From Alphaproteobacteria bacterium (GTDB taxonomy: Bacteria; Pseudomonadota; Alphaproteobacteria; MPNO01; UBA830), in contig OZ219791.1 of NCBI GenBank assembly GCA_964291215.2, positions 1,088,001-1,152,000 of the forward strand: a stretch of DNA of 64,000 nucleotides, in the 5' to 3' direction. Every line of letters begins with the position of its first letter. Position 1 is the stretch's first letter. Shown here one piece after another: positions 51,795-59,461 of the stretch. Position numbers and translations under genes: made by a program. Below the pieces are notes generated by a model. That model searched no databases. It was not told the origin of the DNA and saw only the letters and a list, made by a program, of their open reading frames with translations.

Positions 51795-52059
51795 CGTCCC
51801 TTGCTCCTCGCCTTACGATGGGTTCAAACCCAGGCGTCCAGCGAGGGACGTCAAGGGAGGTTGCCAAACTCGGTCGCGGCTCTGTCAAGGCCAAGGTCAA
51901 AACGGCAACCTCCGCGGAGATCGTTTGATCCCCGCTCCCCTGTGCATGTTCGCTCAGGGGAGTGGAATCTCTCTGCAACCATAGCTCTCCCACAGATCCA
52001 CATTTTCCCGCCCCCAACTGCTGTGGATGATTTCATCATCAAGGGGACAAAACCTAGTC
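51795..52059 (-). ncRNA. Candidate IS110 bridge RNA (copy B)
   Basis: Stem GGAGGTTGCC/GGCAACCTCC encloses guides TGACCT and CGACCGAG matching this copy's target; donor loop partly degraded. Confidence 0.7.
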
Positions 52060-53583
52060 GTATCTACTCACCCCTTGTTGGGTTCTGATTGGCCATAGTG
52101 CTCGTTGATGATGTCTGCGGCTTTTCCGTCGAGGGCGATCTGGGTGGCGACGAGTGGGTTGTAGCCGAGTGCGGCCATGGAGGTGAGGTAGCTTGAGCCC
52201 CGGCACCATGCTTTCGCGTGGAGCGGAAGCATCCGGACACCTTGAGCTTTGCCATCCTGATCTTCTGTTCTCCGGCATTGTTGGTGAAGCTGATGTCGGG
52301 GTCGTCTGTGAAGCGCAGGTTTTCGTGTTTCACGAGACGTTCGTGCAGGTTGTGCGCGTCGGACTTGCGTCCACGTTTTCCTTTCGGCGGGATGTCGGGC
52401 AGTTCCCTGGCACCCTGATGGTGCGGTAGCGCTTGCGCACGGCCCGGCGTCGTTCAGGGTTCTGGATGCGCTCTTGTTGACCTTGTGGCAGACCTCGCGG
52501 AGCAGGCCCTTCATCAGTCGCGCGGTAGCCTCGACGACAAAGGTCAGTTCGCGCAGCAGGTGGCTGCCGCACAGCTGGTGGCTACACTGGCCCATGTACG
52601 AGGCCCAGGACGCCCTTGTAGCACGGGCCGATCTCTTGCCCGCGCTTGCGGTGCGGGAACTTGCACGTCAGGGTCCCACGACATGGAGCCACTTACTGTT
52701 GATCCGAAATCGTCGACATCGGGCGTTGCAGGAGGTGCGCCACGGCGGCCTCCTCCCATGACGCATCGTGAAAGCATAGCCGAGGCAGGTTGCCTCGGAG
52801 AGCTTGATGCCGGAGATCGCCTGCACGAACGCGACGGTACGGCGCAGGGGCAGCATTTGGGCGACCAGCAGGTTGATGACGAGGACCTGAATGCCGATGC
52901 CGTACTGCACGGGATGTTGTCGGGGAACTGGCCCCGGGCCTTGCACTTCGGGCATTCCTTGATCTCGGCGCGGCGCTCGACGACCTCGAACACGATGTCG
53001 TGCGGCGCTCCCGATCGACGGGGCCGTCGATGTCAGCGCCGCAGGCGTCGCAGGCCGCGACCGTTTCCTCGACGATGGTCTTGCGCAGGTTGTCGCCCAT
53101 CTGCCGGTTCGGCTTCGGGCCCTTGCCGTTGCTTCCGGCACGCTCTCGTCCTTGTCCGTCTGTGACGGCGGCAGACCGGAGTTCCGGCTCGTGCGTAGTC
53201 TTCTCCAGAAGGACGACGATGAGGATGTCGAGCAGGATGACGAAGACGCGGATCACGGCCTCTTCCGCCACCTTGCCGGCAGCGCCGCGATCCTGGCCGC
53301 TTCGAACTCCTCGCGCGCCGCCCGTCGCTATCACCCGGCCTTGCGCTTCATCAGCGCGCCGCCTCCGAGATGCGTTTCCACATACAGATCATGCGGAGGC
53401 TGGAGCCCCGGAAGCAGCTGGCACAGCCCGCTCGTCGCCTTCGATCCAAAGTAGCCCACTGGCGGTCCCCGTCGTTCTCGATGACCACCACTAAGCGAAT
53501 CGGCATGCAGTGTCAAATCTCCACGAAAACCCGTTCGTTGCTCTACCCCGACATCAAGCCGGAACCAGGGGGTGAGCAGTTAC
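52060..53583 (-). mobile_element. IS66-family non-autonomous element copy 5
   Basis: Same TIRs; 8-bp TSD ACCTAGTC (52052-52059, 53584-53591). Confidence 0.9.
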
Positions 53584-54867
53584 ACCTAGTCATATAAGGT
53601 CATGGCGTGTTCGGTTTTCCTGAATTCGACGTGCCGGGTGACGCGGAAGATCTGCTTGACTAGTTGATCATCTTCGCCAGCGGGGTGAAAATGGTGCGCT
53701 GGCGGCCATGCGCGGGCTTTTCGTTGTAGCGCTGGCGGTCTTCCAGTTGATGCTCTCTCGAAGGTGCGTTGCCCTTGACCATCAGTCCGCGCGATGGGTC
53801 TCGATGATCAGCCGCGCGGGTGGTGTGGAGCGCGTCGAGGGTGAGCAGACGGCCGTCGCGGCGTGGACGGCAGCGATCTCCCCGCCGTGACAGTTGAGGA
53901 TCGAATACCGGCCAGCGAGACCGTCTCGTAATGATCCTCGCCGGTGCGCTTGCCGTCGACCGCGTTGCCGACCTGCGGCTGCGCGCCGCGTCCTCAATCC
54001 ATCCCGGGTCGGTGTTCTGCAGCACCCGGTGCACGGTGGAGACCGGCTTGTCCCTGTTCTTCCACGCTGCTCCAGCTCCTTCTGCGTCGTAGTGCGCCGC
54101 CGCAACCGCGCCGGTTCGCAAGCCGCGCCATCACGCACAGTACCGAGGCGATGCCCCTGCGCGCGCCGGAAAGCGCCGCTGATAAATCGAGCGCAACTCC
54201 TGCGCCGACCAGCGGCGCCCGCAACTCCCACGCCACAGGAAGCGGCGAACGATCCCGCGTCACGACGCAGCGGAAACACGTAAAGATCCTTCGCCTTCCC
54301 GTGCCGATCGGTATAGCGCCCGCTGGCGCGCGCATGGCTCCTGCCAACGCACTCCCGGTTCGCCGCCTTGTCCATGGTGCCGCTGAACTTCGTCGGCGAG
54401 ACAAACTTCTCCGCAACAAGCAACGGCAGCCTCCCGGTCGCCGCCGCAACATCCGCGACAACGCAAACGAGGCCCGGAAACACTCGGCGACCACCAGGAA
54501 CAACAAACCTCGTGTTGTTCCCGGCAACCACCTGAACTGTTCCTCGCGGCACCAGCCAATCCAGCGGTCCCGCAGCCGAAGGCGCCCGTCTGCCAGCCCG
54601 CAGCGCCAATCCACCGCCCGCACCAAGTGAACACGTAGCGCAGACTTCGACCGGCAAACTGCTTGAAACCAAGATACGGTCAACGACATGATTCCAGCGA
54701 CATCAGGCCGCGCAAGGCGCACAACCACATCCCGGAGCGCAAAACCCTCCGGAGTCGTTTCAAAAAAATCCGCTGCCTCCACGACAACGGATACTACGCC
54801 GCTTCACAAAAAGCCAGCGAAAATGCGAATCATCCTGAACAAGCGAAACCGACCCTTCCAACAAACC

Positions 54868-58097: not shown

Positions 58098-58281
58098 CAG
58101 GACTTTTCTTTTGTTCGGTTCCGTCCGACGAGGGGGCGTTGTAGGCAGATCTGGAGGTCCATTCGGGGGCGGATTTCGTTGTCGATATGCCGGTTCCGAC
58201 CTTGAGACGGTGCCACCAACTTCAAGAACGGCTATTCTGACACGGTTGTCCGCCGCCGATCGCGACAACAGAATGGTCCTG
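58098..58281. mobile_element. MITE family 1, copy 2 (184 bp), inside IS110 copy C
   Basis: 10-bp TSD GTGAGCGTGG (58088-58097, 58282-58291); TIRs CAGGACTTTTC/GAATGGTCCTG. Confidence 0.88.
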
Positions 58282-59298
58282 GTGAGCGTGGCCACTCTGC
58301 CGCCCAGCGTCCCCAAGCATGGTAACGTCACCGTGGTCAATGGGGTTCCAGGTGTCCCGTCCGTAGCCGCGCGGCGGTTCGATCTCCTCAAGAGCTTCGA
58401 TGTCGGCCTCGACGATGATCTGCAGACGTTCTCCGTAAGTCGTGTCGCGCAGGGAGTCGGGGAGACTGTCGAGACAGTCTCGATAATGCTCCTGCACTGC
58501 ACCGAGCTCGGCCACCGCATCGCGCCAGCGTTGCGCACGGGAACGACGGGGCTTTCGGTGGTGGACGACAGGGATGCCGGCCTTGCGGCGTTCGAACACC
58601 AAGTCCGCGTTGAAGCGTGCCGCCGAGGTTGCGGCCATGAACAGGAGATCGCGTGGCCTTCTGTGCCCGCCTCGGATGTGCCGGGCACCGTGGCCGCTGT
58701 CGTCGGCCATCGGCGCCACCCCGATCAAGCGCCTGACGACGCTGCCGAGTTCGGGCATCCAGCACAGAAGGGCGGCGGCGGTCACCGGACCGGGGATCGA
58801 GGTCAGGATGCCGTACCTCTGCTCGGGATCACGGACGATCACCGCTTTGATCGCCGTATCCGGCCCGTCAATCCGATCATCGAGATCGGCCGCCGAGGCC
58901 CTTGTGACGGTCGCGCCATCCACCTCACCTGCCTCAGCCTAGCGTCGACAAGCGCGACACCAAGAGATCCTCCAGGTTGTTGAGGAAGGCATCCTGAGGA
59001 GCCACAGGCTCAAGATCGCCGACCATCGTGCCGATTCTGGCCAGAGTCGACGTGGTTGGCCCAACGCTTCGGCGAAGCGCCGGGCCCGCCGCCAGCGGGT
59101 TGACCAGGACAACCTCGAAGCCCCGGTCACGAAGACACTGGTAAACCCTGCGATGATAGCGGCCTGTCGCCTCCATCACCACACGGGTCACCTCGAGGCT
59201 GCGAAGCCACGTGCCCGCCAGCTCGTGGCGTCGTTCGCTAAACGACGCGCCAGATGTCCAGACTGGCCTTGCTGACATCAAGCTACTACCTTGACCAT

Positions 59299-59461
59299 CG
59301 TCCCTTGCTCCTCGCCTTATGATGATACGGTTTAAACCCAAGCATCCATTCAAGACGCAAGGGACGCCAAGGGAGGTTGGCCGACCAAGCTCGTCCGCGG
59401 CTCTGTAAGGCGGAAACGGCAACCTCCGCGGGGATCGTTTGATCCCCGCACCCCGCTCCCC
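59299..59461 (-). ncRNA. Candidate IS110 bridge RNA (copy C)
   Basis: Target loop (CCGCCT, GGACGAG) and donor loop (ATGGATGCTT, hairpin GGTTTAAACC, ATAAG), each closed by a stem. Confidence 0.75.

Follow-up and report, generated by a model that had tools for sequence, protein, structure and literature searches.

Natural guide series in a decayed IS110 family suggests stepwise retargeting of bridge RNAs within one genome

The closest described system to the one analysed here is IS621. Once excised as a circle, that element rebuilds a junction promoter from which its own bridge RNA is transcribed; insertion is favoured and takes place where the left and right guides of that RNA pair around a CT core, one or two mismatches being tolerated (PMC13626964, PMC13604230). 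Covariation of guide and target across orthologues is what first established bridge RNAs; Durrant et al. 2024 (PMC11208160) report it over 5,511 RNA–target pairs, mostly with 0–2 mismatches, and note low conservation of the target loop. Our subject is a 64,000-nucleotide stretch, hereafter the window, of an Alphaproteobacteria bacterium genome (assembly GCA_964291215.2, contig OZ219791.1, positions 1,088,001 to 1,152,000; C2:1088001-1152000 in the host genome, G000), which contains three copies, labelled A, B and C, of an insertion sequence (IS) family of the IS110 group. No spacer-acquisition step is known for RNA-guided insertion sequences with an internal guide, and the literature searched contained no paper on how they acquire new targets. 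In G000, guides differ between copies and mostly match the insertion sites. We consider it likely, with a probability of roughly 70%, that single-base guide mutations were selected upon opening new landing sites, and that recombination between copies then reshuffled and blurred the guides.

Similar to IS621 (PMC11208160; PDB 8WT6-9), the family has a DEDD recombinase, a left-end RNA with a 5′ stem-loop and two loops, a CT core, a left guide read as the top strand and a right guide read as its complement, and guides that covary with targets. Unlike IS621, here 20 guide pairs occur in one genome, with single-base intermediates, and the targets are mostly multi-copy elements; the family is also longer (1.76–1.97 kb in intact relatives, with a long right end), and all copies found in G000 are broken. 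ISPpu9 and ISPpu10 of Pseudomonas putida are likewise multi-copy IS110 elements in repeated host sequences, but one target class is described for them, and guide diversification is undescribed in the covered portions of those accounts (PMC12288879, 10.64898/2026.03.19.712850). IS4321/IS5075 are IS110-family elements that also land in other mobile elements, the ends of Tn21-family transposons, but belong to the IS1111 group and have one target. Membership of that group, in which the RNA lies in the right end and the inverted repeats are long and sub-terminal (PMC11208160), was rejected for the present family, whose guide-bearing RNA lies in the left end, upstream of the recombinase. The Wolbachia IS fossil record (PMC3205602) shares the retention of many non-functional copies, but has no RNA guide. 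The literature searched, with few subscription papers and no supplements (such as Supplementary Data 2 of PMC11208160), contains no report of stepwise, faster-than-synonymous guide change; the covered portions of 10.64898/2026.08.14.744561 and PMC13604230 do not address guide change within a genome or guide rates, and those of PMC11208160 hold no comparison of guides with synonymous sites.

Judged from sequence, copies B and C are IS621-like elements of the IS110 group, with a predicted DEDD RuvC-fold domain and a Tnp domain. Fragments of copy C match PF01548 and PF02371 in a Pfam profile search, but in different frames; the intact relative P0001 matches both profiles, aligns with the IS621 recombinase at E 2e-28 and shares with it the four acidic residues and the Tnp serine. 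G000 (6.15 Mb, two contigs, 99% complete by marker genes) contains 64 target loops of this one family (67 anchor matches, three unrelated ones set aside), with 12 left guides, 11 right guides and 20 guide pairs. An intact recombinase gene of the B/C family was not found among the 150 of 235 G000 candidates scored, only broken pieces. The closest intact relative, L027 in genome G041, encodes a 315-residue protein related to IS621 and differs from the G000 copies at 7–10% of aligned sites, each copy carrying about 42 gaps against it. The G000 copies thus belong to the IS110 group by descent, not as active members, and, since all were found broken, the pattern is a partly erased fossil record.

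The left ends of 11 relatives fold to the IS621 layout of 5′ stem-loop, target loop and donor loop, with 57 pairs in the comparative folding, 12 of them with compensatory change, and the guides lie within internal loops of the predicted RNA. The right donor guide tracks the start of the left end across relatives when a one-base bulge and G-U pairs are permitted; within G000, the matching donor guide is present in all four copies with the main variant end, but also in three copies with the common end. Together with the domains and the covariation described next, this folding bears out the IS110 family and IS621-type bridge RNA proposed in an earlier note on this DNA. Six bases of the 5′ stem arm are missing in 63 of the 64 G000 target loops, and 36 loops have also lost five bases from the 3′ arm opposite, so that the shortened stem is again continuous; such paired stem-arm losses may be compensation for RNA function.

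To quantify covariation, each copy's own guide was scored against its own flank over five positions per side and compared with shuffled pairings. On the left, own pairings match at 4.15 of 5 positions against 2.99 for shuffled ones (48 of 64 copies with a usable junction, three left flanks being excluded as not true junctions), and on the right at 4.50 against 3.48 (60 of 64 copies), both with p at the floor of 5e-5. The copies are pseudo-replicates and were therefore collapsed to site classes, which gives 3.80 against 2.73 on the left (15 classes, p 5e-5) and 4.06 against 3.11 on the right (16 classes, p 1.5e-4), one right-site class merging unlike sites and so lowering the observed score. 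The covariation check that the earlier note had called for thus comes out above shuffled controls by site class (p≤1.5e-4). The genome's pool contains a perfect guide for 13 of the 16 classes of right flank and 7 of the 15 classes of left flank, compared with about 2% of 5,000 random CT sites. Among relatives, 14 guide–site pairs score 3.57 against 1.95 on the left and 4.50 against 2.36 on the right, a result unchanged with one site per guide (n=8 different guides). For two site classes, sequencing contigs contain the empty site, its halves meeting at the two-base core. Most target flanks are repeats, with 9–188 genome matches, including IS256-type and IS630-type hosts; naming of host repeats from 99 fragments returned these two types, one weak IS66 match and nothing else. 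As to whether guides maximise the number of targets, at least 10 empty perfect sites exist for 11 of 16 guide pairs (genome-wide 95th percentile 10), a comparison confounded by composition.

Of the 64 copies, the 58 whose bodies are contiguous entered the tree and column tests. The guide-masked tree comprises a few old singletons, including C, a clade dominated by one guide, and a 33-copy clade that includes B and persists under masking with support 0.93. Within B's clade, where tested pairs are 0.6–3.2% apart, the guides step by single bases at positions -4, -3, +3, +4, +5 and +6. Across its 10 guide columns the clade has 7 extra alleles, compared with an expectation of 1.8 (Poisson p 0.003), a count equalled by only 1 of 991 ten-column windows elsewhere, and the diversity of the guide columns is 0.142, compared with 0.024 overall and 0.033 at third codon positions. 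The guides are thus about six times more variable than the rest of the element, the second comparison that the earlier note had proposed. Across all 58 copies, the guide columns carry 16 extra alleles, a number reached by 0 of 1,015 windows. Six of the eight derived guide alleles in B's clade repair a mismatch to a site used by the clade (counted by hand, 8 of 33 possible changes being repairs; p 6e-4); the remaining two are singleton transitions, at background level.

Comparison of six intact variants (15 pairs) extends this picture beyond G000: guides differ at 97 of 150 positions (65%) and fourfold sites at 435 of 2394 (18%), with one frameshifted variant excluded from the final rate. As a first estimate from relatives, this suggests a rate of change in guides at least 3.5 times that of fourfold synonymous sites, tempered by the facts that the 15 pairs are not independent and that fourfold sites are GC-biased, with a saturation of 0.64. 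Independent variants differ at four or more of 10 guide positions, with a mean of 6.5.

Recombination between copies is pervasive. In the four-gamete test on B's clade, all four gametes occur in 40% of the 75 variant pairs separated by less than 50 bases and in 62% of the 684 pairs separated by at least 500. Nine copies with a common left-junction deletion at one site carry four guide pairs, so that guides were exchanged after insertion, unless the deletion recurred. In three loops the spacer form between the guides requires a misaligned crossover, and one guide pair of recombinant type is found at a perfectly matching single-copy site of its own. Gene conversion among dead IS copies is reportedly also a feature of endosymbionts, as attributed to Cordaux 2009.

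A simple mechanism could connect these observations, namely the family, the RNA architecture from comparative folding, the covariation, the single-base steps, the guide-column excess and the mosaic copies, all of which the sequences show. By analogy with IS621, the excised circle would express the guide that it carries, and a mutant guide would redirect its own progeny to matching sites; variants reaching fresh targets, mostly other multi-copy elements, would multiply. Gene conversion would later swap left and right guides between copies, occasionally yielding new working pairs. Because the circle would carry and express its own guide, guide–site covariation would arise without rewriting, and guides could outpace synonymous sites because new guides are favoured.

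Several points weigh against this account. The covariation is not tidy: the earlier note held that guides match their own flanks, which stands as an excess over shuffled pairings but is not universal, a 5/5 match being found at only 20 of the 48 junctions on the left and 38 of the 60 on the right. Of the 17 copies that occupy the right site most used in B's clade, 10 carry another class's guide. Trans use of another copy's RNA, which PMC13626964 leaves possible for IS621, could give such mismatches. All 64 copies represent only about 15–16 site classes; guide neighbours with 192 and 49 sites go unused, and the observed guides are not always the target-richest. The commonest-guide group (19 copies) shows no guide excess, with one allele. 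Selection on guides is deduced from rates, and an excess of matched alleles is expected equally from selection or rewriting. Three copies at one site class have 0, 1 and 2 matching alleles, a series that fits either direction, and conversion leaves the order of events unreadable.

Of the other explanations, the one that survives best, although unlikely, is that distinct IS110 variants invaded separately with their own guides and that gene conversion later homogenised their backbones. Two or more variants 11–15% apart coexist in single relative genomes, conversion is pervasive, and B and C are themselves 10% apart. The earlier note treated B and C as close sisters, which they are not: 10.4% of 756 aligned sites differ, placing them in separate subfamilies. 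All five guide differences that it listed between them are real (-4, -3 and -2 on the left, +3 and +4 on the right), but this contrast is divergence at the subfamily level, and separate invasions likely explain it. The informative evidence is instead the 33-copy clade, which lay beyond that note's view. Here, separate invasions fare poorly: independent variants differ at four or more of 10 guide positions, but the clade's guides differ by 1–3 and so point to one recent ancestral guide, and dead copies would give conversion no cause to spare the guides.

Guide rewriting, the step that the earlier note had invoked as an alternative to rapid guide mutation, was tested in intact relatives, where it would make sister copies at mismatched sites diverge in the direction of their flanks. 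Four multi-copy intact variants in G041, G042 and G064 (21 copies, 0–0.4% apart) have one guide pair each; of the 19 intact copies with both junctions, 14 sit at mismatched sites, with 0 guide changes. Within G000, the 18 copies with the commonest guide also retain it at mismatched sites, including single-copy sites. Routine rewriting is rejected on these observations; a rare process is less so, the relatives being young. Two considerations count on the other side here: five of the 14 mismatched sites resemble a one-base register slip, and in copies this recent slow or rare rewriting could escape notice. We regard it as rather improbable that the DNA encoding the guide, together with its CT core, is itself a half-match substrate of the bridge recombinase, which would then reassort left and right guides between copies or convert a guide toward the flank. 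Templated rewriting proper, in which an off-target insertion comes first and the guide DNA is then converted to the flank sequence, for instance with the guide and its CT core serving as a half-match substrate of the element's own recombinase, is quite improbable. It would account for the six of eight derived alleles that match used sites and for the graded series at one site class among copies 0.6–0.9% apart, and half-match recombination is reported for IS621 (10.64898/2026.08.31.748434). It is at odds with the unchanged guides of the 14 mismatched intact copies, with position -5, which is mismatched at three site classes and never altered to match, with the changes being single bases, and with new alleles also lying in old sites, as in the 10 copies noted above that carry another class's guide at the right site most used in B's clade. 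What stands of the earlier note's proposal is therefore natural retargeting within one genome and fast guide change, without its unknown guide-rewriting step.

A mutation hot spot without selection, with unpaired guide bases in a single-stranded circle hairpin mutating faster and cis guidance producing the covariation, is very unlikely. Single-strand circles are reported for IS621 (10.64898/2026.08.31.748434) and the guides are situated in internal loops, but many unmatched alleles would be expected where just two of eight, the background level, are found, and the 21 recent intact copies are free of guide mutation. It is extremely unlikely that mixing of reads between repeats produced the mosaic guides and deletions, even though the mosaicism is fine-scale and contigs are unable to phase guide with flank for most copies: a 197-base contig of public run X1 equals 59364-59560 with zero differences, a contig matches the copy C loop and junction exactly, several guide alleles and deletion forms recur in run contigs (X1 and the other public runs belong to a single study, and the source sample may be among them), marker genes put the genome at 99% complete and covariation recurs in other genomes. 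Assembly mixing could account for some mismatched copies. An end-to-end circle junction was found neither in the assembly nor among the joints listed, in a search limited by the loss of rare forms from contigs and by the inactivity of the copies.

Table 1 Positions of IS110 copies A–C, their predicted RNA elements and associated insertions in the window.
Feature	Position	Strand	Remarks
Copy A left flank, core (1832-1833) and start of left end	1826..1990	+	nested insertions have removed the target loop
Copy A body, right end, core (5852-5853) and right flank	4590..5860 (start approximate)	+	
Copy B interior between the two CT cores	50766..53596	-	left end interrupted by nested element 52060-53583
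Copy B right core (50764-50765) and right target flank	50757..50765	-	
Copy B recombinase pseudogene	51095..51794 (end approximate)	-	
Copy B donor-binding loop, deletion-damaged	51794..51850	-	
Copy B target-binding loop	51856..51913	-	left target guide 51894-51902, right target guide 51869-51877
Nested multi-copy element, IS66-like	52060..53583	.	weak Pfam match, below cut-off
Copy B left core (53597-53598) and left target flank	53597..53605	-	in repeat with 43-45 genome matches
IS630-type host element, 5′ end	57830..57914	+	ends in copy C right flank (57906-57912) and core (57913-57914)
Copy C	57915..59460	-	left end and left flank lost beyond 59460
Multi-copy insert of 186 bases within copy C	58097..58282		
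Copy C recombinase pseudogene	58560..59298 (end approximate)	-	PF01548 and PF02371 pieces in different frames
Copy C donor-binding loop	59298..59366	-	guides match the right and left ends of the element itself
Copy C target-binding loop	59372..59427	-	left target guide 59408-59416, right target guide 59390-59398
Copy C 5′ stem-loop of predicted bridge RNA	59428..59449	-	

All coordinates that the earlier note gave for copies B and C and their flanks are correct (Table 1). The left guide of copy B matches six contiguous bases of its left flank and core (53597-53602), and its right guide eight contiguous bases of core and right flank (50758-50765); the joined empty site 50763/53597 is seen in contigs of run X3. 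Deletions have shortened both closing-stem arms of the copy B target loop, which folds with a z of -4.5. The right guide of copy C matches seven bases of core and flank (57908-57914). In the copy C loop, a 6-base deletion adjoins the left guide and one guide base could be spacer-derived, but the same guide occurs undeleted in another copy. The host of copy C is named IS630-type from HTH and DDE_3 matches in the empty host copy L223. Among 48 other copies of this host element, seven directly show the lost left flank that had been predicted for copy C, 40 have a 6-base deletion exactly over the target site and one has another insertion. The left flank of copy A ends as the earlier note had described. 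The 186-base repeat in the right end of copy C has 46 other matches. Adjoining copy C, window positions 59620-59760 hold a 140-base palindromic repeat with at least 65 matches. Window positions 59757-64000 hold three tandem Rpn/YhgA-like genes, 96% alike and with long open frames; PF04754 and DUF4351 were found on the two scanned, and 90-base end fragments of the IS66-like element are interleaved.

Beyond G000, searches of 40 and 25 other genomes related to the host gave at most one distant intact element, in G001; closer elements occur in 10 of 33 genomes of another family, and a metagenome scan gave five loci, two of them close. The right end of L027 (element positions ~1265-1966) spans about 500–700 bases with internal repeats and an apparent short second frame, and L032, an otherwise intact relative, has a 60-base insertion in its left end. 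At 13 places in G041 (for example C2:4034509-4034567), short stretches match the left end over its first 59 bases, with no target loop nearby in the six of 13 fetched; these are perhaps another element or a mini-element with the same end. Other IS110-family genes with intact long frames are present in G000 at C1:480856-481293 and C1:884303-884740 (429 and 431 residues).

The high-copy IS families of G000 also show a pattern of short deletions. Relative to L027, 93 of 192 distinct deletions in the IS110 copies are 5–7 bases long, with a second peak at 12–14 and little excess microhomology; the copies carry about one deletion per 30 bases, many of them common to several copies. Window positions 50300-56065 and 57915-59460 are among the regions showing 5–7 base deletions. 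The same peak is seen in three other multi-copy elements of the window and is not clear in the Rpn-like repeats; core genes are intact, as are the relatives' elements. Pseudogene deletions usually follow a power law in the covered text of PMC6054270, from which the 5–7 base peak differs. Among candidate causes, Ku and Piwi were not found in the search and no clear motif emerged. The genome has a 96-repeat CRISPR array beside cas1 and further large genes (C1:574247-595000) and a second array, of 17 repeats (C2:2063981-2069543), next to which lie cas1 and a gene of 1046 residues, putatively cas9; self-targeting was not detected, 0 of 111 spacers matching elsewhere in the genome. The deletions are possibly a repeat-directed decay spread by deletion-biased conversion, and this pattern may be more surprising than the guide finding.

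The bridge mechanism has been known since 2024, and the element itself is an ordinary bridge system. If the recombinase did act on its own guide, that would amount to built-in natural retargeting and would account for a rate of change in guides several times that of synonymous sites. The genome holds a rare series of guide intermediates, in which natural guide–site pairs reveal tolerated mismatches and positive selection on guides is directly testable.

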